From sequence record MN536026.1: a stretch of DNA of 57,567 nt, one strand, 5' to 3'. This DNA is from Pseudomonas phage vB_Pae-SS2019XI. Shown here in pieces: positions 35,652 through 50,756 of this stretch; the stretch's first letter is position 1, and every line of letters begins with the position of its first letter. The translations under genes and the position numbers were made by a program. The notes under the pieces were generated by a model. The model saw only the letters and a list, made by a program, of their open reading frames with translations, was not told the origin of the DNA and did no database searches.

Positions 35652-36005
35652 TTAAAAATCGAGTTCGTTCAGGGCGCCGCCTCGTTGACCCTCCAGAATG
35701 GCGGCTTTGATCTTCACCTCGCCGTGCACAGCGGCTAGATGGCGCAGGGCGTACCCGCCCATAACGCATAGGGAGTGTGGGGCGTGTTCTCGCGGGTCGA
35801 TCTCGTCGCCGCGCTCGTCCAGGAGGCGGTAGACGGCCCTCAAACCGCTGAGGTACTCAGTGACGGCGACTCCGGTGTTGCCGTGCATCTGAGTGAGGGC
35901 GAACAGGAACCGGTCCCCGTCTAGGGGGAACCAGAACGTCTCGAACACTTCTGCGGGGGCGGGGCCTTCCGCCGAGGCAACTTGGATCGTCGGCATGGCG
36001 GTCAC
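35652..36005 (-). CDS. hypothetical protein
   Basis: 117 aa, starts at the stop of the ParB-like gene. Confidence 0.4.
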   Translation of the reverse strand: MTAMPTIQVASAEGPAPAEVFETFWFPLDGDRFLFALTQMHGNTGVAVTEYLSGLRAVYRLLDERGDEIDPREHAPHSLCVMGGYALRHLAAVHGEVKIKAAILEGQRGGALNELDF

Positions 36006-37018
36006 AGATCGTCGTCGTCGGTCTTGGCGGCCTCGGCAGCTTTGGCCGCTTTTGCCTCGGCGCGTTTACGTTGCTCCTCCTGCACGGCTTCAACGTTCCC
36101 GTGGGCTGCGAGCAGCGCCATCAACGGTACGACGTCGATGGTGACCTGCCCTCCGTCGATGCGTCCTTCACGGAAGTCGTTGACGACGGCCTCCGCTTCG
36201 GGGCTGAGGCTGCGGCGGAACTTGGCGACATTGCCGACCAGGTCGTTCACGACGGGGCGGGGTAGGGGGCTCCCCTTCATCGTGCCGGCCGTAACTTTCT
36301 TGCTGCCCTGCTTGACTGCCTTGGCGTACTCCTTCTCGATGACTTCAACGGCGTCGCTGCCGTGCTCCTTGGCGATCTTGACCGCCTCGGTGACGGCGAT
36401 CTTGCCGGTCTTGACGGCTTCCTGAACGCCGTGGTCCGCATTCGCTAAGGCGAGGTGGCGGTCAACATGGTCGCGGGGCTTGTTGAACGCTTTGGCGATC
36501 TCCGTCGCGTTCAGGCCGAACTCGACCTGAGCCCGCTTGTAGAGTCGGGCGGTCTCCACTTCCGTGAGCGCGAGGTGCTCGTTGCCTGTGCCGATGCGCA
36601 CGAGCTTTTGCAGATCGTTGCCCTGGAACGGGATGCATTCGATGAACTCCAGGTCGTCAACTTTTTCGAGCAGCTTCGCCTTGTCCGCCGCAGCCATGTC
36701 CTCCCGGATCAGCGACCGGAGCTGCTCTTGCTTGGCCGGGATGACGCGGCCGAAGGCCTCGTGGCGGCGGTGCCCTTGGACGATCTCAATGGCCCCAGTC
36801 TTCGGGTTGACCTCGACCTCCAAGGGGGCCACTTGACCTCCACCCAGGAGGAACTTCTCCAGGGCGTTGATGCTGTGCCAGTAGCGCTCGTCCTTGTCGC
36901 GCTCGTTGTTGCCTGGGACGACCACCAGGTCGGAGTAGCGCACCCGGTAGAGGTCTCGCGACTTGATTGCTTTGTCGCGGCGGAGGCTCTTGAACGAATA
37001 TGCTTTTTCTTGAGTCAT
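36002..37018 (-). CDS. ParB-like nuclease domain protein
   Basis: 338 aa from ATG 37018; GHRRHEA motif (ParB/Srx GxRRxxA); ends TDDDDL. Confidence 0.6.
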   Translation of the reverse strand: MTQEKAYSFKSLRRDKAIKSRDLYRVRYSDLVVVPGNNERDKDERYWHSINALEKFLLGGGQVAPLEVEVNPKTGAIEIVQGHRRHEAFGRVIPAKQEQLRSLIREDMAAADKAKLLEKVDDLEFIECIPFQGNDLQKLVRIGTGNEHLALTEVETARLYKRAQVEFGLNATEIAKAFNKPRDHVDRHLALANADHGVQEAVKTGKIAVTEAVKIAKEHGSDAVEVIEKEYAKAVKQGSKKVTAGTMKGSPLPRPVVNDLVGNVAKFRRSLSPEAEAVVNDFREGRIDGGQVTIDVVPLMALLAAHGNVEAVQEEQRKRAEAKAAKAAEAAKTDDDDL

Positions 37019-37068
37019 GGTTGCTTTCTCAATGGTTTGTTGTTTCTGCAGACGCACCTATCCCGTGG

Positions 37069-37621: not shown

Positions 37622-38536
37622 TCAGATCTTCTTGCCGTTCGGTGCCAGGCGGGCTTCGCGTGTGTGGTCCTGGCGGGTCTGGTTGAACGCCATCTTCTCG
37701 ATCAGCGCTCGGCCCACGTCCAGGTTGCGGCCGCCAGCGTAGTCGGCGATGCGAATCAGCGCGTCTGCCAGCTCCACCTCGATCATCTTGCGGTGAGGAA
37801 GCTTGTCGTCCATCAGGTTCTTGCGGACCCCCTCGAAGCCCTCGATCACTTCGCTGATGATCAGGCAGAGCAGCTCGCCGTCGTTGCGCTCCTTGGGTTC
37901 GCCGGTCTCCAGGTCGCTCCACCAACCGGCGTAGCGGTTGAGGGCGTGCGACATGTCGCTGAGCCGGTTGATGGAAGTGGCGATGCTCGCCACGTACTCG
38001 GGGTCCACCAGCAAGGCGGGGTGTTCCGCGAGGCGGTCGCACGCCTCTTCGAAACTCATGGGTTCCGACTTCAGCGAGTTCCAGGCGATGCGGCAGCGCT
38101 CTTCGTGGTTCTCGGGCACCCCATTAGGCGCCAGTTCCTGGGCCGACCACTGCCGGAATACCTTGAATCCGTCCTCGTTGCCGCGGTAGGCCGCGTAGAC
38201 GGTCTGGAGGCCGAGCAGCCAGTCCTTGTAGTAGGTGCCCTGCAGATCGCAGTTACCCGCATCGACGATCCGGACGCTTAGGTCTTCCTCGTAGCTGGAC
38301 CACTCGACAATCAAGCGTAGGCCTCCTTCTTTCACGTCGAGCAGGGTATTGCGAGCCTCGGCCAAGTCTTCCTTCCGTGCCGCTTCGAACAGCGTTGGAA
38401 GTGTCGAATCAACCGTTTGTTGTTTCTGCGGGCGAGCGGAAGACCCTTGGTCGAGAAGGGTGGTAGGCATTTCCGCAAGGGCCATTTCCGTTGAGCGCGC
38501 CCCCAAGCTGGGGAGGCCGGTTGCTTTGTCATTCAT
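37622..38536 (-). CDS. protein with C-terminal MazG-like NTP pyrophosphohydrolase domain
   Basis: 304 aa from ATG 38536 (GGAGAAAAACC upstream). C-terminal LLCLIISEVIEGFEG...EVELADALIRIADYAGGRNLDVGRALIEKMAFNQTR resembles the MazG/HisE EExxE helices. Confidence 0.5.
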   Translation of the reverse strand: MNDKATGLPSLGARSTEMALAEMPTTLLDQGSSARPQKQQTVDSTLPTLFEAARKEDLAEARNTLLDVKEGGLRLIVEWSSYEEDLSVRIVDAGNCDLQGTYYKDWLLGLQTVYAAYRGNEDGFKVFRQWSAQELAPNGVPENHEERCRIAWNSLKSEPMSFEEACDRLAEHPALLVDPEYVASIATSINRLSDMSHALNRYAGWWSDLETGEPKERNDGELLCLIISEVIEGFEGVRKNLMDDKLPHRKMIEVELADALIRIADYAGGRNLDVGRALIEKMAFNQTRQDHTREARLAPNGKKI

Positions 38537-38621
38537 GGTTTTTCTCCAGGGGTGATCTATCATCGTTGTGTTGTTTATACTACATTTAGTTGAGTTAAAC
38601 ACAACAAATAAGGCCGAGGCC

Positions 38622-38969
38622 CTATTCGATGCGAGTCACCGTCGCGATGACCATGGTGTCGCCGTTCGGCGCTCGGAAGTCGCCCATGGCGAGGGTGTAC
38701 CGAGCGTCCGGCAGGCGTTTCCTTGCGTTCCGCACCTGGCCGGTGACTGTCGACTTGAGCTGCTCTTTGGCCGCCTGGATGTCGGGCCAGGGGTGTGCGC
38801 AGTCGGGGAAGCGGACAGCGCGTGCTTCCGTCTCGCCGAGGTCCAGCTCGACGAGCCGGCTGGTGAAACTGTCAGCCTGCGGCCGGCGCTTCGGTGGCAC
38901 GGCAACACCCGAGTCGACGTCGGGTAGATCCAGGTCATCGGAGGTATGGGTCGGTGTCGATTTCGCCAT
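38622..38969 (-). CDS. hypothetical protein (first gene of leftward early operon)
   Basis: 115 aa from ATG 38969. The longer 38622..39137 ORF is extended by iteron-derived KNLAG repeats and was trimmed. Confidence 0.4.
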   Translation of the reverse strand: MAKSTPTHTSDDLDLPDVDSGVAVPPKRRPQADSFTSRLVELDLGETEARAVRFPDCAHPWPDIQAAKEQLKSTVTGQVRNARKRLPDARYTLAMGDFRAPNGDTMVIATVTRIE

Positions 38970-39006
38970 AGGGAGGTTTCCGGGTTCGGTCTGCGCAGTA
39001 GCGTGG

Positions 39007-39034
39007 AATATAAGACATACGAATCGGCTGTCAA
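39007..39034 (-). promoter_or_regulatory. candidate leftward early promoter (PL-like)
   Basis: Minus strand reads TTGACA (39034-39029)-N16-TATATT (39012-39007); spacer contains the CGATTCG operator-like core. Confidence 0.4.
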
Positions 39035-39080
39035 CTCTGTTTTGCGCTTCTGGAGCTGAACGGTCGAAGAAAGGGCCAGG

Positions 39081-39254
39081 GATCCGGCGAGGTTTTTCAA
39101 GTAAGCGGAGCCGCGGGGATCCGGCGAGGTTTTTCAAGTAAGCCAGGGGTTCCGCGCCGGGGAACGGGCCAGGTTTTTCAAGTAAGGACGAGAAGGAATC
39201 CGGCCAGGTTTTTCAAGTAAGAAAAATCTGTAGCGGCGGGGTCGGCGAAGTAAG
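39081..39254. repeat. iteron array: 4.5 direct copies of CCGGC(G/C)AGGTTTTTCAAGTAAG
   Basis: 25-bp units at 39081-39105 and 39118-39142 are identical. Further cores at 39171-39186 and 39206-39221, with a partial copy at 39247-39254. Spacing 33-44 bp. Lies between the divergent PL-like and PR-like promoters. Confidence 0.8.
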
Positions 39255-39400
39255 GGGGCTGGCGCAAGGAGGGGCGCGAAGCGGTACAGGCCGCCGGAGT
39301 GATAGGCCTGAACAGAGCGCGCCAGGTTGATACCGGCGCCGGCCAGGCGGGGCGGCCAGGTGGCGGGGAATAAAGAAAGGGGGAGTGGCTGGCGCTGCTG

Positions 39401-39430
39401 TTGACACATGGTTCATGTGCTGAGATAAAT
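39401..39430 (+). promoter_or_regulatory. rightward early promoter (PR-like) with embedded operator
   Basis: TTGACA (39401-39406)-N18-ATAAAT (39425-39430). Inverted repeat CACATG-gtt-CATGTG at 39405-39419 lies in the spacer. Confidence 0.5.
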
Positions 39431-39495
39431 ACGCCGTCGGTTTTCAACGGGCGGCATTCGACCCGCCGAACAACAAACGGTTGAGGATTCAACAG

Positions 39496-40005
39496 ATGGC
39501 TAAGAAATTGACCGAGCAACAGCAAGCAGTCGCCGACTTTCTGGCGGCCGCTGGCGTAGAGTTTTCCGTTATTCCGCGCTGTGCGACGAAGCGCGACGAC
39601 TGGGAATGCGACGAATGGGCGCCGCTGTTCCGTCGCGGTTCGGACCGTGAAGGCCACCAGATAGCGCACGCCTATTTCACGGGGATCGGGCACCGTAAAT
39701 CCGAACGGCCGATGCCGCCGGACATCGCCCGACTGGCGCCCCGCATTCTCGCCCGCGTGGAGTGGGAAAAGCGCCACCTTAAGCCGGTAGCGCCGTGCGC
39801 CGCTGACGTTCTTTACTGCCTGCTGTCGGACGCCAACGGCGCCGACCAGAATTTCAACGATTGGTGCGCCGACTTCGGTTATGACCCGGACAGCCGGAAG
39901 GCCCTGGCAACCTATGACGAATGCTCCAAAGTCCTGGCGGACGTGCGGGCGTTTTTCAGCGCCGCCGAACGCGAAAAGCTGGCCGAACTGCTGGAGGGCT
40001 ATTAA
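39496..40005 (+). CDS. hypothetical protein
   Basis: 170 aa from ATG 39496; GAGG 12 nt upstream; first gene of the rightward small-gene operon. Confidence 0.45.
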   Translation: MAKKLTEQQQAVADFLAAAGVEFSVIPRCATKRDDWECDEWAPLFRRGSDREGHQIAHAYFTGIGHRKSERPMPPDIARLAPRILARVEWEKRHLKPVAPCAADVLYCLLSDANGADQNFNDWCADFGYDPDSRKALATYDECSKVLADVRAFFSAAEREKLAELLEGY

Positions 40006-40007
40006 TC

Positions 40008-40217
40008 ATGGCGATTTTCACTGTTCGGTTCGACACGGATAACGAAGCCTTCGACGGCGCCGGTCGTGACTATGAGATTGCACGGATTTTGCGCGCTATC
40101 GCCGATAAGGTGGAGGGCTTCGGCTGTTCCGGATTCTTCGAAACCATACGCGACATCAACGGGAACGACGTCGGCCGCTTCGCCCTGAAGAACGCCGACG
40201 GCACCAACGGGGAGTAG
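40008..40217 (+). CDS. hypothetical protein
   Basis: 69 aa from ATG 40008, three nt after upstream stop. Confidence 0.35.
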   Translation: MAIFTVRFDTDNEAFDGAGRDYEIARILRAIADKVEGFGCSGFFETIRDINGNDVGRFALKNADGTNGE

Positions 40218-40222
40218 CCGCA

Positions 40223-40468
40223 ATGCCTTTCACTTTCGACGCAGCCGCCACCTTGCTTATTTACGTTTGCACGACTGCTGCCTTGGATGACTGCCAGATT
40301 TACGCAGTCGCCCAAGCGGACGGCCCCCGCGCCGCTGTGACCTGTTCCCGTGAATTGACGGCAGAGGCCGACCGCTGGCGGGCCGATGGGTTTAAACACG
40401 TCGCCGCCGTATGCGTGGACCAGCAGGGGCGGGACGTGACCGACATTGACGAAGTGCAGCGATTTTAG
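40223..40468 (+). CDS. hypothetical protein
   Basis: 81 aa ORF in the rightward small-gene operon. Confidence 0.35.
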   Translation: MPFTFDAAATLLIYVCTTAALDDCQIYAVAQADGPRAAVTCSRELTAEADRWRADGFKHVAAVCVDQQGRDVTDIDEVQRF

Positions 40469-40504
40469 TGCCCTCGAATCAACTTTCTATTGAGGTGACA
40501 ACAA

Positions 40505-40786
40505 ATGGAACTAACCGCATATCTCCAGCACGGCAAAGCCGGCGGCCCGTATCGGACCGAGCGTGTCCCGGTAATGGAACAGCCGGCCGAAATTGTCCCC
40601 GCTGCTCGCTCCCGCACCGGCTACGGCAAAGACTTGCCGACCCCGTACCTGATCGACTGGGAAGGGCTGCGCCGCCGGGTCTATGCCGTCTGCTATTCGA
40701 ACGTCGCCAGCTTCTACATCCGTACGAATCGCGACACGGACAACGGCGGCCGGATCTTCGTCACTATCGACCGGGAGGGCGCGTAA
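40505..40786 (+). CDS. hypothetical protein
   Basis: 93 aa; GAGGTGA RBS; preceded by the 21-bp repeat. Confidence 0.4.
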   Translation: MELTAYLQHGKAGGPYRTERVPVMEQPAEIVPAARSRTGYGKDLPTPYLIDWEGLRRRVYAVCYSNVASFYIRTNRDTDNGGRIFVTIDREGA

Positions 40787-41230
40787 ATGTCCATTCACGA
40801 CGAAATCAAGCGGCATATGGCCCTGGCGTTCTTCGGGTCCGCCTATGCTGATCAGGCCGAAGAATGCGGCCAGCCCCTGGCCGGTGAAATCATGGACCAG
40901 TTACCGGAAGCGATCGACCCGGCGGCCCTTCACGCGGCCGACACTCTGGCCGCGAGCATGTTGCACGCTAACGGCCTGAAGTCGGCGCCCTTCGACCTGG
41001 AATCGCTGTTCCTGCGCGCCGTCGAAATCGCCGAAAACAGCGACGACAAGGGCGACCGGGAACACTCGCCGGAAATGTTCGGGCACTACTGCGCCATGCA
41101 AGCTATGGGACACGGAGTCGGGCTTTCCGATGCCTTCGGGCGGCAGGTCTATGACGCCATCCGCGTGCCCTATACCGAGTTCGGGAGCTATTCCCTGGAG
41201 CGCGATTATTTCGCACAGGAGGGGGCTTGA
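40787..41230 (+). CDS. hypothetical protein
   Basis: 147 aa; start abuts upstream stop. Confidence 0.4.
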   Translation: MSIHDEIKRHMALAFFGSAYADQAEECGQPLAGEIMDQLPEAIDPAALHAADTLAASMLHANGLKSAPFDLESLFLRAVEIAENSDDKGDREHSPEMFGHYCAMQAMGHGVGLSDAFGRQVYDAIRVPYTEFGSYSLERDYFAQEGA

Positions 41231-41233
41231 GCT

Positions 41234-41431
41234 ATGGCCGCGAAAAAACTCGCCTACGTGACCGGCACAAGCCGCTGGGGTTACCAACTGAAGGTCGACC
41301 CGGACAAGTGCGCTGCAGAGTTTCAGCACATGTGCGGCCTGATGTTCACCTCATACCGCGCCGCCCAAGACATCGCCAATGCGATTAACGACAACATCCG
41401 CCGCAAAAGGAGTGCGCCCAATGGCCGTTGA
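41234..41431 (+). CDS. hypothetical protein
   Basis: 65 aa ORF in the rightward small-gene operon. Confidence 0.35.
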   Translation: MAAKKLAYVTGTSRWGYQLKVDPDKCAAEFQHMCGLMFTSYRAAQDIANAINDNIRRKRSAPNGR

Positions 41432-41720
41432 ACTGATGCGCCGCGCCGGCACCGAAGGGTGCAAAACCTATTGGCTAGACGTGCGTGGGCGGGGCGGTTT
41501 CCTGCGCGTGCATACGGCCTCTATCACGAATCCGCGCCAGGTCGATCCGGAGCTTGAACGCCTGGCCGCCATGGTTGAGGCGGCGCCCCAGCTGGCGCAG
41601 GCGCTGGCCGATCTGGCCGCCGCTTCCTGGCTGGAGCCGGACCCGTCCGATTCTGAGGAACTGGCGCAGGCAAAGCTCGCCGCTCTGGCCGCCCTGGCCG
41701 CCGCTACTGGGGGGAAATGA
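41421..41720 (+). CDS. hypothetical Ala-rich protein
   Basis: 99 aa from ATG 41421 (overlaps upstream gene). Confidence 0.35.
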   Translation: MAVELMRRAGTEGCKTYWLDVRGRGGFLRVHTASITNPRQVDPELERLAAMVEAAPQLAQALADLAAASWLEPDPSDSEELAQAKLAALAALAAATGGK

Positions 41721-42034
41721 TCATGCCTATTCGAGTTTCCCAGACCTACGAAATTGTCACGCCCGAAAGCGCCGAGGCCGGCGACGCGGGAGAAAGCGGC
41801 TTTGACTTCGAAAACGCGGAGTTCGGGCTTCGCGAACTGGTCGACTATATCGAAAGCAACGGGTTTACCGAGCCTAGCTGTTCGCAAGGCTGCCCGGATT
41901 GGGTCACTCAAGCGGATGGCGACTTGGACTATCAGACCGGCGCCGAAGAACGCAAATCCTTGCATCCTGGCCGTGACGACAGGTCTCGCCGCTACTGGGA
42001 AAAGGCGCTGCGTGCCGCCGGGGTGATCCAATGA
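41717..42034 (+). CDS. hypothetical acidic protein
   Basis: 105 aa; ATGA overlap with upstream gene. Confidence 0.4.
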   Translation: MIMPIRVSQTYEIVTPESAEAGDAGESGFDFENAEFGLRELVDYIESNGFTEPSCSQGCPDWVTQADGDLDYQTGAEERKSLHPGRDDRSRRYWEKALRAAGVIQ

Positions 42035-42237
42035 AAACCGGGAGCCGTAGCGATTTAACCAACATCTGGCGTTGGAATGCGCAGGCCGGCTACTGGGCCC
42101 TTGTGCGGGATGCATACCGGGAGAATGTGGCGCGCTGGCTTGAGATTTTCCGGTCCGATGAACCTGGAGTCGTGTTCAAAGCCAGTAAAAAGCGACCGCA
42201 CAAATCGCCGGGGGTAACGCATGGCGAAGAACGATAA
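42031..42237 (+). CDS. hypothetical protein
   Basis: 68 aa; ATGA overlap. Confidence 0.35.
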   Translation: MKTGSRSDLTNIWRWNAQAGYWALVRDAYRENVARWLEIFRSDEPGVVFKASKKRPHKSPGVTHGEER

Positions 42238-42445
42238 GTCGCCGCACCTGGCCGTGCCGCCGTGGTGGCCGTTCGTGCGCCTGGCGCTGGTCCTGCTGAC
42301 CCTAGGCGCCGCTATGTGGGCGTGCGGGGCGCTGTTGCTGGCGGCGCAACGGTTCGCCGCTGCAATGGTTGTCGCGGCCGCACTCGGCGTGCTGGGGGCG
42401 CTCTATCCGACCGAACTAAAGGAGGCCGAACGGAAAGACGAATAG
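42221..42445 (+). CDS. small membrane protein (two TM)
   Basis: 74 aa; WWPFVRLALVLLTLGAAMWACGALLLAA. Confidence 0.4.
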   Translation: MAKNDKSPHLAVPPWWPFVRLALVLLTLGAAMWACGALLLAAQRFAAAMVVAAALGVLGALYPTELKEAERKDE

Positions 42446-42451
42446 AATTAG

Positions 42452-42480
42452 TTGACACACGAATCATGTGTTTCTATATT
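42452..42480 (+). promoter_or_regulatory. internal sigma70 promoter with operator
   Basis: TTGACA (42452-42457)-N17-TATATT (42475-42480); CACA-cgaatca-TGTG at 42456-42471 in the spacer. Confidence 0.5.
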
Positions 42481-42523
42481 GTGCCTGTCGGCGATTCTGC
42501 CGCACAGATACGGAGCAAAAACC

Positions 42524-42904
42524 ATGAAAACTCAAGGCTTTTCGATCCACGCGAAAGAGCCGGACGGATGGCTTAAGGCGTGGGAAGTTCGCAAAGACGG
42601 CAAGCCGGTCGCACACTTCCGCTATCGCGACTGCGCGGAAAGCTACGTTGAAGACGCCCGCGCCATGCAAACCCCGGCGGCAAGCTATCGTTTCATTCCC
42701 GGCTTAGGCATGGTTGGCGCCGTCGTGGACGTGAAGGAAATACAGGTCCGCCCGTTCTACGGTCGCGCCATGCTGGCGTGGTTGTTCGAGGAATACGCCC
42801 ATTGGGCCCAGCAACCGGATCACGCCGCCACCCTGCGCGCCGAGCTGCGCAACGGCCGGCAAATGGTCCGCATGGTCGCCTTTGAACTCCGGCAGGGGGC
42901 ATGA
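42524..42904 (+). CDS. hypothetical protein
   Basis: 126 aa from ATG 42524 downstream of the promoter; GGAG upstream. Confidence 0.45.
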   Translation: MKTQGFSIHAKEPDGWLKAWEVRKDGKPVAHFRYRDCAESYVEDARAMQTPAASYRFIPGLGMVGAVVDVKEIQVRPFYGRAMLAWLFEEYAHWAQQPDHAATLRAELRNGRQMVRMVAFELRQGA

Positions 42905-43185
42905 CCATGCTGAACAAAACTGCCCTTCGATCCACCGCTTATCTTGTCCGCGTCAAGGCTGCAATCGTCGCTGCTGTGCGCTGCGCACATGCCCCCCATC
43001 GCTCGGCGCTGGGCATCGGCCATGGCGCCGTGACGGACAGGAAAGGTCGCTTTTCCCTGCGCGTGGTATGGCGCCGGGGTCACGGTCTGGAGATTTTCGA
43101 CCGCCAGGACCGTGACGTCACCGACGTCGTGTTGACCGCCCTGAAGGCGTTCCACATGACGGAAACGCGGGCAAGTGCTGCCTGA
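42901..43185 (+). CDS. hypothetical protein
   Basis: 94 aa; ATGA overlap. Confidence 0.35.
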   Translation: MTMLNKTALRSTAYLVRVKAAIVAAVRCAHAPHRSALGIGHGAVTDRKGRFSLRVVWRRGHGLEIFDRQDRDVTDVVLTALKAFHMTETRASAA

Positions 43186-43214
43186 CGAATCAACTTTCTA
43201 TTGAGGAAACAACT

Positions 43215-43472
43215 GTGCAGGTTCAATTTCTGTTGACGGTCTACCGGCCGGAGCCGAACGAAAACGCGGCAGAGGTGCGCAAGGCGCTAGCGAAAGCCGG
43301 CATTGCCGCCGCTGTTGAGCGGGTCGACTTCGACGCCCTGTTGACGGCGGCGCGAGCGGCGGCCGCGTCGCTACGCTGGCACCGCGACCAAGGTCACTTC
43401 GCCGGAATGGATGGCGTTTATCTGGAGAATCTGGAAGCGGCGATAAAAGGCGCCGAAGGGGGCGCCCCGTGA
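43215..43472 (+). CDS. hypothetical protein
   Basis: 85 aa, GTG start; GAGGAAACAACT RBS region; preceded by the second copy of the 21-bp repeat. Confidence 0.4.
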   Translation: MQVQFLLTVYRPEPNENAAEVRKALAKAGIAAAVERVDFDALLTAARAAAASLRWHRDQGHFAGMDGVYLENLEAAIKGAEGGAP

Positions 43473-43629
43473 ACCGTTCCGACCGTGAGGGCGCCGCCGT
43501 GGTCGCCGTGGTAGTGCTGGGGGCCGTCGCTGTCGCTGCTGTGCTGCTCGCCGTGGTAGGCCTCAACCTGCCGCATGTGGTCGCCGGATTCGCCCAAGGG
43601 CCGTAGTCGGCGGCCGGAACGCTAGGTTG

Positions 43630-44187
43630 TCAGCGGGAGCCCCACGGGAGCCCGTCCGCTTTGAACTCAACAGGAACCGCCCCAAAGTCGAAGAATGGTA
43701 GCTCAAGGGTTACCGTCTTCGACTTTTGCATTTGGGCGATGAACCGAGCGGCGCCGACAATGTGCAGGGCCCCGGTTTCGTAATTCTTCAGCTCCCCGCC
43801 CCATCGCTCGGCGGCGCCTTCGTCGAAGCGCACGCGAATATCACACGTCCCCATGCACCCGAACTGCCCACGCGGCACGCCCACGAAAGCCAGGGCCTTG
43901 CCGCTGGAGTCCTTGCCTACGGTCAACGTCAAGCGCTGCGCCCCCTCATAGGGCGGCGGCAGGGTAACCGCGTCACGCGACCATATGGTGGCGCTATAGG
44001 CTGTGCGGCCACTCATGCGGTCGGGCGCAGCCTGGAATATCCATGTGTCGGGCGACCCGTCGCGCAGGCTCAAGCCTTGATTGCCGCCTGGCCGCGTGTC
44101 CGTCGCATGGTCCGGCGGCGAGCTGGCGCAGCCGCTTAGCGCTGCCACCAGTCCCACCACGGCCAGGGAAAACCGCATAGTTCGCAT
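43630..44187 (-). CDS. lipoprotein (moron; superinfection-exclusion candidate)
   Basis: Signal peptide plus lipobox MRTMRFSLAVVGLVAALSGC; 185 aa; convergent with the rightward operon. Confidence 0.5.
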   Translation of the reverse strand: MRTMRFSLAVVGLVAALSGCASSPPDHATDTRPGGNQGLSLRDGSPDTWIFQAAPDRMSGRTAYSATIWSRDAVTLPPPYEGAQRLTLTVGKDSSGKALAFVGVPRGQFGCMGTCDIRVRFDEGAAERWGGELKNYETGALHIVGAARFIAQMQKSKTVTLELPFFDFGAVPVEFKADGLPWGSR

Positions 44188-44283
44188 TGATCCTTTCTCC
44201 CGTTCGGCGTGCTGTGCCGGCGACCATAGCCGCACCTGGCACAAAATGCCACGGCCGAACGCGGAACTGTGACGCGGGGCGGC

Positions 44284-44466
44284 CTAGTCGCGGGCGACCT
44301 GCTTCAGCCTGGCGGGCCTTGCTTGCTGCACACGTTCACGGAGTCGCTCTAGCTCCAGGTCCTGTTCTACCACGACAGCCCATAGCTCCCGAATGGCGGC
44401 GCGGCACTCGGCCAGTTCATCCCCAAGGCGTGCCGCTGTAGTGCGTCCCATTGCCTGACTCATCAC
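44284..44466 (-). CDS. hypothetical small coiled-coil protein
   Basis: 60 aa ORF immediately left of the AT-rich island. Confidence 0.3.
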   Translation of the reverse strand: MMSQAMGRTTAARLGDELAECRAAIRELWAVVVEQDLELERLRERVQQARPARLKQVARD

Positions 44467-44853
44467 TCACCCCTGCTGAGTACTGGTTATCCATACAGTA
44501 TATTCAGGACCGCATGCGTCGGCCTGTCAAGCTCCAGGGCGCAGGGATGCCGGCCGCCGTATGTGCAATGCATATAGGCGTGTTTCGTCGTGCCAGGTCG
44601 CCGCGTCGCCGTGTTTCGGCGTGCCTGTTTAACTAGAACGTTTATTTAAACCGTATATCTATCACTACCGTTCGTCGGTTTATCGGCCCGTTTACAGGCG
44701 TCGATTAACTGCCCGCCTAAGTGACCGGGTCCCTCCAGGGCCTTTTTTCGGCTGGGCGGGGGCGCTGAGCCGCGATCACGCATTTTGTCGATTTTCCGCA
44801 ACGCCACCTTTGGATTTCGGCGCGTACCCCGTCAAAAGGGCTGGACCCGGAAA

Positions 44854-45129
44854 CCCGGATAATCTGCTCATTCTCTATTTGGACAAAAAATATTTTTCTC
44901 TCCTTTTCCGAATCACTATTTTTTCCGGGACTATCCGGGACAGACTTTTCAGGGAAAATAAAAAGTATAGAGAAATCAACGTTTTGCGGAGTTGAGGAGG
45001 GGGAGGCACTTTGGCTGATTCAACGCAGGTAATTCCGCTGTCCCGGAAAAATGTGAAATTATCCGGGACATCTCAGGAAAATCATCAAAATGGCACACGG
45101 TTCATGTGTCTATAAACACGATTCGTGTG
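44854..45129. repeat. AT-rich island with (T)TATCCGGGAC(A) repeats and two CACA-N7-TGTG sites
   Basis: TCCGGGAC at 44924, 44934 and 45062, inverted at 45040. The 11-mer TATCCGGGACA is at 44932-44942 and 45060-45070, with an inverted ATTATCCGGG at 44854-44863. Operator-like sites at 45094-45108 and 45115-45129. Local GC is far below the genome average. Confidence 0.55.
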
Positions 45130-45230
45130 TCATTTATGTACGGGGAATGGGTCAGTTTTCGATGACTTTTATGCTGCGTCATACACAGAGTCGTAAACGG
45201 CACGATAAACCGATCTTCTGCCCAGCATTT

Positions 45231-45266
45231 AGCGAGCAAAAATAAACCCGCCATGTAGGCGGGTTT
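45231..45266 (-). terminator. rho-independent terminator downstream of primase-helicase gene
   Basis: AAACCCGCC-atgta-GGCGGGTTT 9-bp perfect stem (45244-45266), followed on the minus strand by AUUUUUG. Confidence 0.6.
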
Positions 45267-45284
45267 CGGGGGTGAAAGGGGAGG

Positions 45285-47828
45285 CTACAAGTCGTCGTCC
45301 TCATCATCGTCTTGCTCGCCTTCCATGTACTTGCGGATCTTCTCGGTATCCGGGATCAAATCACCTTCGGCGTTTCTCCAGGTGAACTTCTCGGGGTTTC
45401 GCGAGTAGAAGCGATACCGCTCCTGCCCGATCCGGACGCGCCCGATTGGAATGAACCCGTGGTTCTCCAGGATGTAGTTGAGGGTCTTTGGTGCCGGCAG
45501 CTCGAAATCGTAGTCGTCGTTCATCGTTAGGCTTTCGAGCCGGGTGATGTTCAATAGGTCATCCGAGATGTCAGGGAATTCCTTCGACTCGATTATTTCG
45601 CGGATGCCTCGTAGTTCCTTCGGCTGGGACACCCGCACCATGTAGCGGAATGCCGGGGTAATGGGTGCATTGCCATCCGGGTGGAAATCGGGACTCTGCT
45701 CTAGCTGCAGCATCCACTGCCGAAGTGCCGGTGCTGACTCGTCCAACGCGGCGTACAGATCGTTGTAGTAGTCCGGGTTCTCCTCCATGAACTCCGCGAG
45801 CTTTTCGCGCTGTTGCCATTGTGAGAAGAGGACGCAGTAGCGCCGCTCGTTGTCTTGCAGTGGCAGGGCCTTGCGGTAGTTACTGAAGAGTAGGTAGGAG
45901 GTCGTGTTCTCGACGTTGTAAGGGTCGCGGCCCTTCGCATGGATCTCGATCACCCGGTTCGTCACCAGCGGCTTGAACCTGTTCAGCACGTCGTAGCGGT
46001 TGTGGCCGACCATGTGGACTTCTTCGAAAGCGAGCACGCATTGACCCTGGGCCCAGGCGGTGAAGCTGGACTCCAGGATGTGGGCGTTGGCCATCGTCAC
46101 GTTGCCGATCCCCATGACGGCGCGGAGCAGGAAGGCGAAGAACGATTTACCGTCACCTGGGACGCCTTGCAGCAGGATCGCCCAGTTGACCCTTTTACCT
46201 GGGTTCTGCACGACGTACGACAGCCAGTCGAGCAGGATGCGCTGCTCCTTCGGGTCCTCCAACATGTGGGCAATGTGGGCTCGCACCCGCTTTATGTTGA
46301 TCTTGTCGATGGGCCGGATGTTCTTCGGCTTCGGCGGGATGTGGTGCTCGGGGTAGGTGTTGGCCCATTGAGTGCCGTTGTAGATGAAGACCCCGTCACG
46401 ACCAGGTGCGTACATGCGTCCGTGCACAGTCGGGATTTTGTAGACGTTCAGCGCGAGGTGGCAGGCGGTACTGACTGGCGCCGACTTCCCATCCAGAACG
46501 TCCTTTTTGGTCATTGCGTGCCGATCGTTGATCGCGTTGAAGCCTTGGGCTGAGACCGCATGCTTGTGGACGGTGTGGTAGAACCGGTCCTCGCTGGCGT
46601 CATAAACCCAGTCGCGGCACCACCGCGGTAGCTCTTTGGTATTGATCTCGTAGGCCAGAGATTTCTTCACTTCCGCCAGCGGGACCTTGTTGCCCGTCAA
46701 AGCCACCAGTCGGTCTCTTGCGATCTCGGCGAGGCTAGCTCGGGAGAGGTGGTCGATTTCGGCCCGCCGGGTGATCTTCGCTGCCTCGTTCCATTCAGCT
46801 CGGTCTTTCGCCATCGCGAACTGGTTGCGGAGTTCGACGGCGGTTTCAATCGCCTTCGTCTCCGCAGCCTCCTTCGCGAGTTGCAGGATCAGTCGGGCAG
46901 TAACTGGGGCGCGGCCCTTGTCGCTGATATCGAAGGTGTCCCACTTCCGGTTCAGCGCATCGGCGTCGTAGTTGTCTGCGGACTCCGACCATTCGTGCCA
47001 CATCTCTCGGCCGATGTCCTCTCCATCGTACTGGTGGTAGAGCGCCATCCCGATCTGGAGCCAGGTGTCGTAGTCTTCTGCACCTGGAACGAGCATTAGG
47101 CGCTGCTGCAACTCGGCCTGCGACAGATTCACAGGCTGGGCGTCGGCCGCAAACGGATCGTCCTTGTCTATCGCTGCAGAGCCGGGTTGCCTGTTGATGC
47201 GAGAGCCTCGGACCAGCGTCCAGCCCCGTTTCTCTGCTTCTGATTCGAATAAACGAACAAGCCCTCCAAGCTTTTCCGGCTCAATCAGCGGGAGGTCGTC
47301 AGCTGACGTGTTGAGCGGGCTCTCCTCACTGGTCCAGCGGTACGGCCGGTGCGTTTCGGGGTGCTTGTGGAAGGCTACGAATTGCTGGCCATCGCCGAGA
47401 ATCTCGATTCGGCAGCGCTCTTGCCACTCGTTGAGGTAAGTCTTCGAGGTGATTTTTCGGAAGGGCTCGTCTGTGCGGTAGAGCAAAAGGCGCTTGGGCG
47501 GCAACCCAATACGGACGGGGGCTCGTCCTAAATTCTCATGGCACCAGTCTTCAAGCAGATCCGCCAACTCGTCATCGAGCACGTCGATGTCTACGGCTGG
47601 GGTATGCGCGGCGAGGATCCCCACGCCGTGGTTCTCCAGACCTGACTCCATCCAACGCGCCAACTGAGCTTGGCTCGCACGGGTTTTCTGCCAGTCGTCG
47701 AACCCCGGTGCCTTTTTGCCAGGGGCAATAGGGACGATGTTGTACCCGTGGTCGATCAGTGTCTTGCCGTGCTGCGCCAGGTAGCCGCCCTTTATCACCT
47801 GGGTGCGGTCTTTCGTGGCTCGGTCCAT
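45285..47828 (-). CDS. primase-helicase (prim-pol N-terminal domain + D5_N + P4-type SF3 helicase)
   Basis: About 847 aa. N-terminal GYNIVPIAPGKKAPGFDDWQ fits a prim-pol domain. Walker A GVPGDGKSFF. ATG 47828 has GAGGTGG upstream (the table's GTG 47834 is the alternative). Ends DDDEDDDL. Confidence 0.8.
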   Translation of the reverse strand: MDRATKDRTQVIKGGYLAQHGKTLIDHGYNIVPIAPGKKAPGFDDWQKTRASQAQLARWMESGLENHGVGILAAHTPAVDIDVLDDELADLLEDWCHENLGRAPVRIGLPPKRLLLYRTDEPFRKITSKTYLNEWQERCRIEILGDGQQFVAFHKHPETHRPYRWTSEESPLNTSADDLPLIEPEKLGGLVRLFESEAEKRGWTLVRGSRINRQPGSAAIDKDDPFAADAQPVNLSQAELQQRLMLVPGAEDYDTWLQIGMALYHQYDGEDIGREMWHEWSESADNYDADALNRKWDTFDISDKGRAPVTARLILQLAKEAAETKAIETAVELRNQFAMAKDRAEWNEAAKITRRAEIDHLSRASLAEIARDRLVALTGNKVPLAEVKKSLAYEINTKELPRWCRDWVYDASEDRFYHTVHKHAVSAQGFNAINDRHAMTKKDVLDGKSAPVSTACHLALNVYKIPTVHGRMYAPGRDGVFIYNGTQWANTYPEHHIPPKPKNIRPIDKINIKRVRAHIAHMLEDPKEQRILLDWLSYVVQNPGKRVNWAILLQGVPGDGKSFFAFLLRAVMGIGNVTMANAHILESSFTAWAQGQCVLAFEEVHMVGHNRYDVLNRFKPLVTNRVIEIHAKGRDPYNVENTTSYLLFSNYRKALPLQDNERRYCVLFSQWQQREKLAEFMEENPDYYNDLYAALDESAPALRQWMLQLEQSPDFHPDGNAPITPAFRYMVRVSQPKELRGIREIIESKEFPDISDDLLNITRLESLTMNDDYDFELPAPKTLNYILENHGFIPIGRVRIGQERYRFYSRNPEKFTWRNAEGDLIPDTEKIRKYMEGEQDDDEDDDL

Positions 47829-47836
47829 GCCCACCT

Positions 47837-48100
47837 CTACGCTTCAGCGGACTGAGGGGTTTCTGTCCATGCACTGCCGACCAAGGCCTTGAGCGCCAAA
47901 TCGACCTTCAGGCTGAGGCGGCCCCTGGACATAGCGACGTGCAGGTGATTGGGGTGGCATCCGACGGCTTTACTCAGCACAGGTAACGAGCCGCTGGCGT
48001 TGTGGAAGAGGGCTGCTCTACGCAGGCGATAGATCAGGAGCATTCTGCGTCGCTCTTCGTCGCTGAGCGCGGGATCTGTCACCCAGGAAGGGAGATTCAT
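47837..48100 (-). CDS. Cro/YdaS-like HTH regulator
   Basis: 87 aa from ATG 48100 (GAGG 9 nt upstream). HTH-like LSKAVGCHPNHLHVAMSRGRLS. Divergent from the replication operon. Confidence 0.45.
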   Translation of the reverse strand: MNLPSWVTDPALSDEERRRMLLIYRLRRAALFHNASGSLPVLSKAVGCHPNHLHVAMSRGRLSLKVDLALKALVGSAWTETPQSAEA

Positions 48101-48181
48101 AGTTACAACCTCTGGTAGAGTGGACAATCTCAAGTTGATAGCCTACAGTCGGCCCTGTTAGAGATCAATCGATAATGAGTG

Positions 48182-48210
48182 TTGACCAAAACAACTGTTT
48201 GTTGTTTTAT
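48182..48210 (+). promoter_or_regulatory. candidate replication-operon promoter with perfect palindromic operator
   Basis: TTGACC (48182-48187)-N17-TTTTAT. The spacer is AAAACAAC-tgttt-GTTGTTTT, a perfect 8-bp inverted repeat at 48188-48208. Confidence 0.45.
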
Positions 48211-48276
48211 CAATAGGCGATTGAGCATAACCCGCCAACACCTTTCGGCGGAAATTCAACCCCCTGGAGACATGCA

Positions 48277-48687
48277 ATGAGTAGCGAAATGACCCTCAAC
48301 CAATTCGGCGCTGAGCTGATTCGTCACCTGGCCCGCCTGGCCAACGCCGTGGAAGGTATCGAGTCGAAAGTCGGGGCTGCCGGCGCCGGCTCGGCCGGTA
48401 GCACCAGCGCCTCCACCACTACTGGCGGCAGCAAGGGCTCTTCCGGTCGCAGCACCAAGCAGAAGGAAGAACCGTCCAAGCCGAAGCACGACAGAGCCGA
48501 GGTCGACAAGGCCCTGATCGCGCTGAAGGACGCCCATGGCAAGGACGAGGCCGTCGCGGTCTACAAGGGTTTCGGTTACGCGAAGATGGCCGAGATCGCC
48601 GAGAAAGATTTCGACGCTGTCTACGAAAAAGCGGTTGCTCGCCTGGAAGAGCTGAACAGCGACGGCGGCGAAGGCGAAGATCTGTAG
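48277..48687 (+). CDS. hypothetical protein with Gly/Ser/Ala-rich linker, ends GEGEDL
   Basis: 136 aa, GGAG upstream, first gene of the rightward replication operon. Confidence 0.4.
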   Translation: MSSEMTLNQFGAELIRHLARLANAVEGIESKVGAAGAGSAGSTSASTTTGGSKGSSGRSTKQKEEPSKPKHDRAEVDKALIALKDAHGKDEAVAVYKGFGYAKMAEIAEKDFDAVYEKAVARLEELNSDGGEGEDL

Positions 48688-50009: not shown

Positions 50010-50045
50010 CCCGTAAATCGAGTAAATCTGAAATAGGTGAATCGC

Positions 50046-50663
50046 ATGGCTCGTGAGATCGTCAAAAAGGTAAAGAATGCCGTTCTGTACTCCGATGGTT
50101 GCATCCGTATCGATAACGTTCGGGCGTCGTATCCGCACTTGGATAAAGCTTGGGCGAAAAACGAGAGTGACCGGCCGAAGTTCAGCATCACCGGCCTGGC
50201 ACCCAAGGAAACGCACGAAGAAGCCAAGAAGCTCCTGGTGGAAGAGATCAATAAGCTGCTGACCTCCAGCAAGATCGGCAAGCTGGCTTCCGAACACAAA
50301 TTCGTTCGGAACGGCGACGACTCTGGCAAAGAAGAAGCGGAAGGCCACTGGATTATCAAGGCTTCGGAGAACCCGGATCGCCGCCCCTCCTGCAGGACGC
50401 CTCGCGGGACTGTGATGACCCCGGAAGAAACCGCCAAGAAGATCTACCCTGGCTGCTGGGTGAACATCCTTGTGCGCCCTTGGGCCCAGAACAATCAACA
50501 TGGCAAGAAAATCAACGCTAACCTGATCGCGGTCCAGTTCGTTCGCGACGGCGAACGGTTCGGTGAAGGCGCTATCGATGATGAGGATGTCTGGGACGAA
50601 CTCGACGACGCCGCGGATGATGGATACGACTTCGGGGACGAGGGCGGCGACGACGACCTCTGA
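50046..50663 (+). CDS. DUF2815-type phage ssDNA-binding protein
   Basis: About 205 aa from ATG 50046 (GGTGA upstream; GTG 50037 is the table start). N-terminal VKNAVLYSDGCIRI...YPHL. Acidic tail GGDDDL. Confidence 0.5.
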   Translation: MAREIVKKVKNAVLYSDGCIRIDNVRASYPHLDKAWAKNESDRPKFSITGLAPKETHEEAKKLLVEEINKLLTSSKIGKLASEHKFVRNGDDSGKEEAEGHWIIKASENPDRRPSCRTPRGTVMTPEETAKKIYPGCWVNILVRPWAQNNQHGKKINANLIAVQFVRDGERFGEGAIDDEDVWDELDDAADDGYDFGDEGGDDDL

Positions 50664-50746: not shown

Positions 50747-50756
50747 GGAGGCTTGC

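Follow-up and report, generated by a model that had tools for sequence, protein, structure and literature searches.

Palindromic candidate operators set in a fixed register within sigma70 promoters of a Pseudomonas aeruginosa prophage and its relatives

The window analysed here is the whole 57,567-nucleotide stretch of Pseudomonas phage vB_Pae-SS2019XI (MN536026.1), a P. aeruginosa prophage and Casjensviridae-like siphovirus. It carries a 15-bp palindrome, with consensus CACAYG-NNT-CRTGTG over four strong copies (39405, 42456, 45094 and 45115, named S1 to S4); the leftward promoters at 32783 and 39034 (sequences TTGACAcacgattcgagcgcatcTAAATT and TTGACAgccgattcgtatgtctTATATT) each contain one more copy, of degenerate sequence. 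All six copies are non-coding. The promoters concerned head several operons, P39034 being that of a DUF7609, MazG-like, ParB-like, RdgC and methylase operon, and two genes for helix-turn-helix (HTH) proteins lie elsewhere in the window (Table 1).

Table 1. Palindromes, promoters, candidate regulators and neighbouring features, with the palindromes of related phage groups
Feature	Position	Strand	Sequence	Remarks
S1	39405-39419		CACATGGTTCATGTG	CACA-N7-TGTG, inside promoter P39400
S2	42456-42470		CACACGAATCATGTG	CACA-N7-TGTG, inside promoter P42452
S3	45094-45108		CACACGGTTCATGTG	inside weak leftward promoter-like site
S4	45115-45129		AACACGATTCGTGTG; minus strand CACACGAATCGTGTT	one mismatch to CACA-N7-TGTG
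P39400, rightward early promoter	39400-39429	+	TTGACA-N17-GATAAA	holds S1; heads small-gene operon 39496-42445
P42452, rightward promoter	42452-42480	+	TTGACA-N17-TATATT	11/12 to consensus; holds S2; heads genes 42524-43472
P39034, leftward promoter	39007-39034	-	TTGACA-N16-TATATT	11/12; degenerate putative operator ACAGCCGATTCGTATGT, 12/17 symmetric
P32783, leftward promoter	32755-32783	-	TTGACA-N17-TAAATT	putative half-operator CACACGATTCG
S3 promoter-like site	45084-45112	-	TAGACA-N17-TTTGAT	weak; points towards cos; S3 in usual register
S4 with upstream hexamer	45115-45133	-		ATGACA precedes S4 on minus strand
Candidate regulator 1, 87-aa Cro/YdaS-type HTH	47837-48100	-		first gene of primase operon
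Candidate regulator 2, CI-like	54852-55517	+		N-terminal XRE HTH, C-terminal domain of roughly 130 aa
cos (cohesive-end) motif	44750-44770		GGCTGGGCGGGGGCGCTGAGC	also in PMC3483164
LexA-box-like sequence	44481-44500		TACTGGTTATCCATACAGTA	CTG-N10-CAG; upstream of 60-aa coiled-coil ORF 44466-44284 (-)
Group B palindrome			ACACCT-N5-AGGTGT	
Group C palindrome			ACACTCGCGGCGGGTGT	
Group D palindrome			ACACCTACGGCGGGTGT	
Group E palindrome			GACACTGTTWAACAGTGTC	

The motif is clearly over-represented. The window contains four exact copies of CACA-N7-TGTG where 0.75 would be expected, a count reached by 0 of 100 shuffles; one of these matches, at 14782 (CACACAGGGGGTGTG), lies in the structural-gene region and is unrelated. 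The initial annotation had described four strong sites of this form, and its quoted sequences stand, with S2 ending at 42470 instead of 42471 and S4 departing from the pattern at one position. With a symmetrised weight matrix, S1 to S4 score 22.9-25.7 bits, the 95th percentile of the shuffle maximum being 15.7. The half-sites that it had also seen in the two leftward promoters were recovered in the same register after TTGACA, scoring 12.4 (32765-32779) and 7.2 (39016-39030). Between 12 and 14 of 17 positions are self-complementary in the palindromes, and an in-register 17-mer with at least 12 such positions follows 5 of the 52 WWGACA hexamers in the window (shuffle mean 0.25, maximum 2). The CACA and TGTG blocks lie 11 bp apart, centre to centre, about one helical turn, and this dyad symmetry is what would be predicted of binding sites for a dimeric phage-encoded HTH regulator. 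A literature search on the motif gave no match. The six loci resemble each other in the promoter and palindrome core only, with no shared similarity in their flanks, and therefore do not represent a longer duplicated or mobile segment.

The position of the palindrome relative to the promoter is constant. The main promoters match the consensus at 10-11 of 12 positions with spacers of 16-17 bp, and base 5 of the -35 hexamer is the first base of the palindrome in P39400, P42452, P39034, P32783 and the weak S3 site alike. The sites behave like the operator family joined to sigma70-type promoters that had been proposed earlier. The centre of the palindrome falls in the spacer, 12 bp past the first base of the hexamer, or at about -24 if the hexamer is set as -35 to -30; a dimer bound there would exclude RNA polymerase. 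S3 and S4, whose centres are 21 bp or two helical turns apart, had been recorded as a pair in an AT-rich island. Neither is devoid of promoter sequence: on the minus strand a -35-like hexamer precedes each, in the usual register. The island itself corresponds to the cos and genome-end region, S3 and S4 being 325-360 bp away from the cos motif, and not to an immunity region. Nearby, the 60-aa ORF behind the LexA-like box is a possible SOS-controlled antirepressor, with no similarity to Tum of phage 186. The box and a homologous small ORF are kept in group B; they go together with the CI-like gene in both A and B, and the combination was not found in groups C or D.

Relatives were gathered through the primase gene and include the Burkholderia phages AH2 and BcepNazgul. 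The frame TTGAC(A/C)-N9-G(T)GTC is kept at homologous promoters throughout, these two phages included. Close relatives L008 and L009 retain all of S1 to S4; L001 retains S1, the P32783 half-site (CACACGATTCGAGTG) and S2, whose palindrome is perfect there owing to a C>T change. P39400 is conserved in all three, and the counterpart of P39034 in L015 and L055 reads TTGACAcccgtggcgtatgtctTATCAT. In groups at 43-72% primase identity, another palindrome occupies this register and recurs inside each genome; the observed count is reached by 0 of 100 shuffles for groups D and E and by 1 of 100 for group B. The outer arms are constant across operator classes (ACAC/GTGT; GACAC/GTGTC). Homologues of the 94-aa protein encoded at 42901-43185 directly follow a palindromic promoter in groups A to D, and in groups B, C and D this promoter bears the lineage-specific palindrome. 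AH2 has five TTGACAC-N9-GTGTC promoters, and BcepNazgul has GACAAGGCTTAACGTTGTC, with the fifth base altered on both arms. Within each of these two genomes the inner bases differ among promoters, which weakens a strictly sequence-specific reading. An inner sequence proper to each lineage has the look of co-evolving operators and regulators.

No regulator gene adjoins any site, as had been recognised from the start: the closest gene for an HTH protein (47837-48100) lies 2.7 kb away from S4 and that of the CI-like protein 9.7 kb, and nowhere is a repressor gene found next to and divergent from the palindromes in the lambdoid manner. A repressor encoded at a distance is the sensible explanation. 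The candidates named in the initial annotation missed the best-placed one, the 87-aa Cro/YdaS-type protein. Its gene lies directly upstream of the primase gene, in synteny, in every relative searched. The protein has no Pfam match; a profile search links it to Xfaso 1 Cro (PDB 3bd1, E=6e-5), PF15943 is present in 5 of its 95 homologues, and its AH2 and FoX4 counterparts are annotated Cro. An AF2 model (pLDDT 88.7, four helices) superposes best in Foldseek on the same Xfaso 1 Cro (rmsd 1.4 Å over 53 columns, probability 0.92), with E-values that are all weak (at least 0.56 among the matches listed). By profile and model, it is of the Cro/XRE fold and family (all-alpha HTH). Its recognition helix varies by class (A NHLHVAM, B KQLYIEI, C QHITNCI, D QHLTNCM, E NSLNAML), and classes C and D combine near-identical helices with a common half-site; this correspondence follows phylogeny and is therefore not independent evidence. 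The divergent promoter region of the gene itself (48134-48276) holds no copy of the motif and carries other palindromes, which could be the real sites of the protein.

The second candidate is the CI-like protein. Pfam HTH_3 is its sole family at E<=0.01, so that no S24 peptidase is detected, and its C-terminal domain is without Pfam match. One explanation, possible though unlikely, is that this protein alone binds the palindromes as immunity operators, silencing early operons in the lysogen, with induction through a LexA-controlled antirepressor, given the missing peptidase match. Its XRE HTH followed by a large C-terminal domain, its full-length match to phrog_2967 ('transcriptional regulator') and its 45% identity to AH2 gp70, annotated 'repressor' and reported to match phage 186 CI (HHpred 99.87%; PMC3483164), all fit such a role. 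So does the co-occurrence of its gene with the LexA box and small ORF; scattered sites, two of them 21 bp apart, would be in keeping with an oligomeric repressor of the 186 type, and the constant outer arms would suit a protein whose recognition helix is nearly invariant. The same invariance leaves unexplained the inner bases that differ between lineages and are conserved within each genome. Moreover, the gene is missing in groups C and D as well as in BcepNazgul and FoX4, and yet groups C, D and BcepNazgul keep palindromic promoters in the same register, the BcepNazgul change being symmetric on both arms; no integrase was found in the stretches fetched from these three. Homologues also occur in phages with no integrase annotated (AH2, regions fetched) or found near the gene (group B). 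An hhalign comparison of an 8-sequence CI-like profile with 186 CI found nothing (probability 0.2), a PDB profile search returned HTH domains only, and a single-sequence AF2 model (pLDDT 36) was unusable. The "immunity repressor" first proposed is thus not established, since the palindromic promoters persist without the CI-like gene and its helix hardly changes where operators do.

The palindrome is very probably a binding site for a phage repressor. We rank the Cro/YdaS-type protein above the CI-like protein as predicted binder: the former occurs in all relatives searched and its helix is lineage-specific, the latter is absent from lineages with palindromic promoters and its helix is near-constant. 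The motif, its enrichment, its register, its lineage-specific replacement and the fold and distribution of the two HTH proteins are observed; binding by a protein, the identity of the binder and a repressive effect are inferred. Our favoured interpretation, with a probability of about 0.5, is that the elements are operators of a dimeric phage HTH regulator, most likely the 87-aa Cro/YdaS-type protein, possibly shared with the CI-like protein. A dimer on the palindrome would block access of RNA polymerase to the near-consensus sigma70 promoters of accessory and early operons, thereby silencing these promoters. Strong repression is expected at P39400 and P42452, and a weaker effect at P39034 and P32783 with their degenerate copies. 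The Cro/YdaS-type protein would then provide the shut-off of early transcription. Temperate lineages, this prophage among them, may in addition employ the CI-like protein at these sites to keep the operons silent in the lysogen.

It is decidedly unlikely that the binder is another, unrecognised phage protein, for example an operon product with Aca-like negative feedback such as that of 42901-43185. The constant placement of its homologues behind a palindromic promoter in groups A to D would agree with this, and most proteins of these operons match no Pfam, PHROG or NCBIfam family, so that DNA-binding folds could hide among them. However, no homologue of the 42901-43185 protein was detectable in group E, where the operators are present, and in no protein of these operons was a DNA-binding signature found.

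Still less credible, in our view, is an origin without any dedicated trans-factor, as a promoter-family signature (descent or gene conversion) or a DNA or RNA structure (cruciform, hairpin, terminator). The left arm is indeed partly dictated by the -35 hexamer TTGACA, but the right arm mirrors it, down to the A/T change of BcepNazgul, and RNA polymerase needs no such mirroring; the dissimilar flanks and the retention of one sequence at several promoters per lineage also argue against it. S3 and S4 do appear in a terminator scan, as weak hairpins of terminator-like form. An intrinsic terminator or structured RNA was nonetheless rejected: the hairpins are weak (-0.5 to -4.2 kcal/mol), no Rfam family matched, and the sites lie upstream of their own transcription starts.

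We give very little credence to a host transcription factor coupling early phage transcription to host physiology. Outer arms constant across Pseudomonas and Burkholderia phages would be in line with it, but the inner bases differ within a single host genus (P. aeruginosa for group A, P. citronellolis for group B), the literature search was unproductive, and we know of no Pseudomonas regulator whose consensus is recognised in the motif. Finally, a MerR-type activator sitting in the spacer and remodelling the promoter is barely tenable: the symmetry centre is in the spacer, a placement shared with MerR-family promoters, but those need over-long spacers of 19-20 bp, and the 16-17 bp spacers with near-consensus hexamers found here need no activator. 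In its favour, a small excisionase-like gene lies at 55510-55740, its homologue AH2 gp69 being annotated excisionase, and AH2 gp30 and gp31 are reported as MerR-superfamily and pyocin-activator-superfamily proteins (PMC3483164).

The candidate operators share features with several known systems. As in OR and OL of the lambdoid phages (lambda, 434, P22), strong early sigma70 promoters have dyad-symmetric operators of 14-17 bp across their core, related phages differ in specificity with position kept, and both Cro-type and CI-type HTH proteins are encoded; 434 has constant outer bases (ACAA) and variable inner ones, as is the case for ACAC here. Unlike the lambdoid case, there is one operator per promoter without tripartite array, S3 and S4 forming the only pair, the sites are spread over 12.4 kb and four or five promoters, the divergent cI-cro pair is absent with no regulator gene adjoining a site, and the CI-like protein lacks a detectable S24 peptidase domain. 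The repressor of coliphage 186 (CI, Apl, LexA-controlled Tum) likewise has an HTH domain at its N-terminus and lacks any detectable peptidase domain. Phage 186 also has distributed CI sites (pR, FL and FR in the 186 record) and a small SOS-box-controlled gene near the genome end, far from the repressor gene, to which the putative SOS-controlled ORF here would correspond. Phage 186 is P2-like, however, its operator sequences and the fusion to the -35 hexamer have no parallel between the two phages, the SOS-box ORF is unlike Tum, and the CI homology was not reproduced by hhalign.

In the conserved inverted repeats of phiC31 and the stoperators of mycobacteriophage L5, one repressor-type motif occupies many genome positions near early promoters; here only 4-6 copies exist, all promoter-embedded in a fixed register, and they are palindromic where L5 sites are asymmetric. 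The KorA-KorB system of IncP/RK2 similarly places identical short palindromes in or beside several strong sigma70 promoters of one replicon, silencing multiple operons, and a ParB-family protein is also encoded here (36002-37057); RK2 is a plasmid with unrelated operator sequences, and no ParB-like gene was detected in the fetched stretches of operator-bearing relatives. Aca regulators of anti-CRISPR promoters also combine very strong early promoters, small accessory genes and inverted repeats for shut-off by an HTH protein. The operons here differ in having no HTH gene, and the search, made outside padloc, brought up no homology to acr or aca genes.

On the favoured interpretation, these promoters and their regulator would form a repressor-operator switch of an ordinary kind, but one not described before in this phage family.

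The four palindromes quoted in the initial annotation (S1 to S4) read in the window as given and constitute a strong family, although they are not all CACA-N7-TGTG, the site at 45115 having one mismatch. Exact matches to this pattern number four in the window against 0.75 expected, a count reached in 0 of 100 shuffles, and the match at 14782 is unrelated to the family. With a symmetrised matrix, the four sites score 23-26 bits and are set apart from all else (95th percentile of the shuffle maximum, 15.7), with CACAYG-NNT-CRTGTG as consensus. The leftward promoters described as carrying half-sites (P39034 and P32783) proved real, and so did the fusion of the operator to the -35 element, since the palindrome starts at base 5 of the hexamer in all cases. 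An in-register 17-mer that is at least 12/17 self-complementary follows five of the 52 WWGACA hexamers in the window, where shuffles averaged 0.25 and never exceeded 2. On the minus strand, S3 and S4, whose centres are 21 bp apart, are preceded by the -35-like hexamers TAGACA and ATGACA, and S3 lies inside a weak TAGACA-N17-TTTGAT site. The six loci have no similarity outside the core. We consider it probable (about 0.85) that these sites are operators for a phage regulator. Between the divergent P39034 and P39400 lie four 28-nt direct repeats, 86-100% identical and spaced 35-44 bp, a further array that likely binds protein.

The symmetry centre falls 12 bp after the first -35 base, within a spacer of 16-17 bp, and the promoters hosting the palindromes match the consensus at 10-11 of 12 positions, so that they should need no activator. 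A protein seated on the spacer palindrome would exclude RNA polymerase, which, at promoters independent of an activator, makes repression the likely function. Full sites at the rightward promoters P39400 and P42452 would give strong repression, and the degenerate ones at P39034 and P32783 a weaker one.

Comparison with relatives extends this promoter pattern beyond the window. In the close relatives (L001, L003, L007, L008 and L009, 93-100% identical), the sites are kept wherever the fetched regions cover them, and in L001 a C>T change turns S2 into a perfect palindrome; these genomes are otherwise too similar to be informative. An IMG/VR scan with TTGACACAYGNNTCRTGTG returned three close relatives only, besides two chance matches (L004, L005), and the window motif had no match in relatives fetched by their primase (43-72% primase identity). 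These same relatives have sigma70-like promoters at homologous places, upstream of the DUF7609 and 42901-43185 homologues, with a different palindrome in exactly the register of the window's. Taking the window and its P. aeruginosa relatives as group A, we found ACACCT-N5-AGGTGT in group B (a P. citronellolis prophage and relatives), ACACTCGCGGCGGGTGT twice in group C, ACACCTACGGCGGGTGT twice with a degenerate copy in group D, and GACACTGTTWAACAGTGTC four times per locus in group E (L106, L125). The observed operator count was reached by 0 of 100 shuffles for groups D and E and by 1 of 100 for group B. Among isolates, Burkholderia phage AH2 has five TTGACAC-N9-GTGTC-NCC-TAnnnT promoters and BcepNazgul has promoters of the TTGACAAGG(C/T)TTAAC type, the most symmetric being GACAAGGCTTAACGTTGTC, with the fifth base altered on both arms; in both phages, the inner palindrome bases differ among promoters. 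No comparable promoters appeared in the scan of FoX4 and of relatives further removed (primase identity up to 47%, other hosts).

Primase-profile scans of species-representative genomes and metagenomes yielded many loci. Most contigs lack the operator-bearing operons because they end at cos, some 0.5 kb beyond the primase gene, and the co-variation test thus covers only about eight lineages. Across relatives, the palindrome keeps a fixed position, its outer arms hardly vary (the -35 hexamer dictates part of the left one) and each lineage has inner bases of its own, repeated within a genome. This is the pattern expected of operators co-evolving with a phage-encoded dimeric regulator.

As to the identity of this regulator, we give roughly even odds to an 87-aa Cro-type protein, which the candidate list of the initial annotation had overlooked, as the main binder, with a CI-like protein possibly sharing the sites as in lambda. 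In all relatives searched, its gene directly precedes that of the primase. A profile built from 19 homologues matched the Xfaso 1 Cro structure (3bd1, E=6e-5), PF15943 was found in 5 of 95 homologues, and the AH2 and FoX4 annotations name the homologue Cro. The AlphaFold model (pLDDT 88.7) adopts a four-helix XRE/Cro fold; Foldseek E-values were all weak, the best superposition being on 3bd1 (1.4 A over 53 columns). The putative recognition helix varies by operator class and is nearly identical in groups C and D, which have a half-site in common. Three caveats apply: the helix/operator correspondence follows phylogeny, the promoter region of the Cro-type gene (48134-48276) has other palindromes instead of the motif, and inner bases differ between promoters in AH2 and BcepNazgul. 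The replication-operon promoter, TTGACC-N17-TTTTAT, has another palindrome in its spacer, AAAACAAC-TGTTT-GTTGTTTT, and relatives have yet others there (CACGGCGCCGTG in group D, for example); the spacer palindrome may represent a second class of operator and is possibly the site of the Cro-type protein itself.

That the CI-like protein alone binds the sites is doubtful. The initial annotation had proposed this HTH protein, and it does have the make-up of a regulator: an XRE HTH followed by a C-terminal domain without Pfam match, a full-length match to phrog_2967 and 45% identity to AH2 gp70, itself matched to phage 186 CI by HHpred at 99.87% (Lynch et al. 2012, PMC3483164). With a shallow profile, hhalign against 186 CI was negative and a PDB profile search returned HTH domains only; a single-sequence AF2 model was unusable (pLDDT 36). 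Groups A, B and E, four further loci (L012, L020, L061, L084) and AH2 have homologues. Groups C and D, BcepNazgul and FoX4 lack the gene, the helicase gene there being followed directly by a small gene and TerS, yet palindromic promoters are kept in groups C and D and in BcepNazgul. Moreover, lineages with differing operators have almost the same recognition helix in this protein, (T/S)QE(A/G)VRKWF. On presence and absence as well as variability, the Cro-type protein fits better than the CI-like protein. By eye, the small protein adjoining the CI-like gene resembles excisionases or pyocin activators of the PrtN type, with no Pfam, PHROG or NCBIfam match. Proteins of this type always accompany the CI-like gene, even in group B and AH2, in which no integrase turned up close by, and this one is possibly a late-gene activator instead of an excisionase.

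Binding by another phage protein appears quite improbable, a search of some 45 non-structural proteins against Pfam, PHROG and NCBIfam having provided no further DNA-binding candidates. The ParB-like protein, considered by analogy with KorB, was rejected as the stretches fetched for groups B to D showed no sign of its gene, and the 42901-43185 product, as an autoregulator, because no homologue was found in group E. Very unlikely are palindromes acting without any trans-factor: as RNA they would form weak hairpins placed upstream of their own transcription starts, and neither a structural element nor simple common descent would readily account for a fixed position and lineage-specific, genome-repeated inner bases. 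The same lineage-specific bases, repeated in each genome, make recognition by a host factor highly improbable. MerR-type activation is likewise highly improbable because the spacers are not over-long.

Judged from its genes, defined by GC3-based gene calling, family searches and comparisons, the window is a complete, circularly permuted genome of a temperate siphovirus, the permutation following from a small HTH-like gene, upstream of TerS, that spans its end and start. Lineages without the CI-like gene have homologues of this HTH-like gene at the same place. Primases of Xanthomonas FoX4, Achromobacter phiAxp-2 and AXY1, and Burkholderia BcepNazgul and AH2 share 41-46% identity with the window's, and the 87-aa sequence recurs unchanged as a P. 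aeruginosa hypothetical protein on 560 contigs (the largest of 6.97 Mb); together, these matches identify a P. aeruginosa prophage of a Casjensviridae-like group. Against 50,697 phage records, region 38500-46000 gave nothing by megablast and short fragments only by blastn; there is no close sequenced isolate of it. Scans of the window for tRNAs and Rfam families gave no matches. The PolA-type gene has no tblastn match in L008/L009, though the flanking genes are 93-100% identical, and a 660-668-aa protein without Pfam matches occupies its position in other relatives (L133-L138); the locus appears to house one or the other of two unrelated polymerase cassettes. At least eight window proteins end in an acidic (D/E)n-L tail, with similar tails in relatives, suggestive of a common docking motif of the kind formed by the acidic tails of SSB or T7 gp2.5.

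Features of the window and their coordinates
Feature	Position	Strand	Content
S1	39405-39419		palindrome in P39400
S2	42456-42470		palindrome in P42452
S3	45094-45108		palindrome
S4	45115-45129		palindrome
P32783	32783	-	TTGACAcacgattcgagcgcatcTAAATT
P39034	39034	-	TTGACAgccgattcgtatgtctTATATT
28-nt direct repeats	39079-39222		GGGATCCGGCGAGGTTTTTCAAGTAAGC
Small terminase gene (TerS)	window start		
Structural genes	1-25.5 kb	+	
Leftward block	25.5-38.6 kb	-	C5-methylase, RdgC homologue, ParB-like protein, DUF7609 protein
Rightward block	39.5-43.5 kb	+	small genes
Leftward block	43.6-48.1 kb	-	ends in primase-polymerase, preceded by 87-aa protein
Cro-type gene	47837-48100	-	87 aa
Replication-operon promoter	48179-48207		
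Rightward replication block	48.3-55.5 kb	+	DUF2800 nuclease, Enc34-type SSB, PolA, VRR-NUC, SNF2 helicase; at its end XRE-HTH, then excisionase-like (possibly PrtN-like, by eye) protein
PolA-type gene	50745-52805		
CI-like gene	54852-55517	+	XRE-HTH protein
Adjoining small gene	55510-55740	+	excisionase/PrtN-like, by eye
Tyrosine integrase	56010-57044	-	
Small HTH-like gene	57350-57567, continuing at 1-20		
LexA-box-like sequence	44481-44500		TACTGGTTATCCATACAGTA; cos side opposite S3/S4
60-aa coiled-coil ORF	44466-44284	-	immediately downstream of LexA-box-like sequence
cos motif	44750-44770		GGCTGGGCGGGGGCGCTGAGC; matches BcepNazgul cos overhang, AH2 first bases, FoX4 last bases
cos flanks	44727-45070		hairpin, short repeats
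Inverted repeat	44675-44695 / 45193-45213		TCGGTTTATCGGCCCGTTTAC / GTAAACGGCACGATAAACCGA
Acidic-tail genes	1-576, 33748-34278, 34275-35381, 36002-37057, 45285-47834, 48277-48687, 48690-50009, 50037-50663		TerS, unknown, RdgC, ParB-like, primase, unknown, DUF2800 nuclease, SSB-like; tails EADDDL, EYDDL, TEDDDL, TDDDDL, DEDDDL, GEGEDL, GEDDL, GGDDDL

S3 and S4 do lie where the initial annotation had placed them, and its AT-rich island is itself the cos region. BcepNazgul has an annotated 12-nt cos overhang (GCTCTGCGCCCT), the AH2 record begins at cos (GCTCAGCGCCCT), the FoX4 record ends in ...GGGGGCGCTGAGC, and at least six independent relatives' contigs end inside GGCTCAGCGCCCC, about 0.45-0.5 kb beyond the primase stop. 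The position of the cos motif puts S3 and S4 325-360 bp from the virion DNA end. The flanks comprise a conserved GGAGGGACCC hairpin and, between the cos motif and S3, some six CCGGGAC/CCGGATA repeats that may be terminase-binding (cosB-like) sites; a 21-nt inverted repeat, 90% complementary with 497 nt between its arms, brackets cos. S3 and S4 are specific to group A; the group B operator was not found in the equivalent region of L071.

The LexA-like box and an ORF homologous to the 60-aa one are conserved in group B (P. citronellolis type; L071, about 13450-13640); neither was found in lineages that lack the CI-like gene. A repressor without peptidase match, together with this box and ORF, suggests a 186-like route in which a putative SOS-controlled antirepressor, the 60-aa product, would bring about induction; this product has no similarity to 186 Tum.

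Functionally, the sites are akin to lambdoid CI/Cro operators, those of 434 especially, with constant outer and variable inner bases. A lambdoid switch, however, has an adjacent, divergently transcribed repressor gene, which the window does not. The dispersed layout recalls the 186 CI sites, the conserved inverted repeats of phiC31 and the KorA/KorB regulon of RK2, any kinship of the window's CI-like system with 186 being putative. A literature search turned up no description of the motif and no study of promoters or operators in this phage group, and the AH2, FoX4 and JS26 papers do not mention promoters or operators.

A joint reading of these observations is distinctly speculative and, as a whole, unlikely. 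BcepNazgul/AH2-type siphoviruses and their Pseudomonas relatives would share one early-transcription regulon, in which the -35 element (TTGACAC) physically merges with an operator half-site, leaving evolution free to change the inner bases alone. Its master shut-off would be the Cro-type protein, which temperate and virulent members both conserve. To this, the P. aeruginosa lineage would have added a 186-like oligomeric CI looping the scattered sites, a small antirepressor under LexA control, and, about 330 bp from the cos end, an operator pair coupling repression to genome-terminus events.

Conceptually, this is a standard phage switch and no new category; it is real, coherent and testable, and would not surprise a phage geneticist. 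It provides an uncharacterised prophage with a concrete, testable regulatory map, naming the promoters that would be switched, their places and two candidate proteins. With their fixed register and lineage-specific inner bases, the relatives offer a natural series of operator/regulator pairs, which may serve the study of HTH-specificity evolution or the design of orthogonal repressible promoters for Pseudomonas and Burkholderia.
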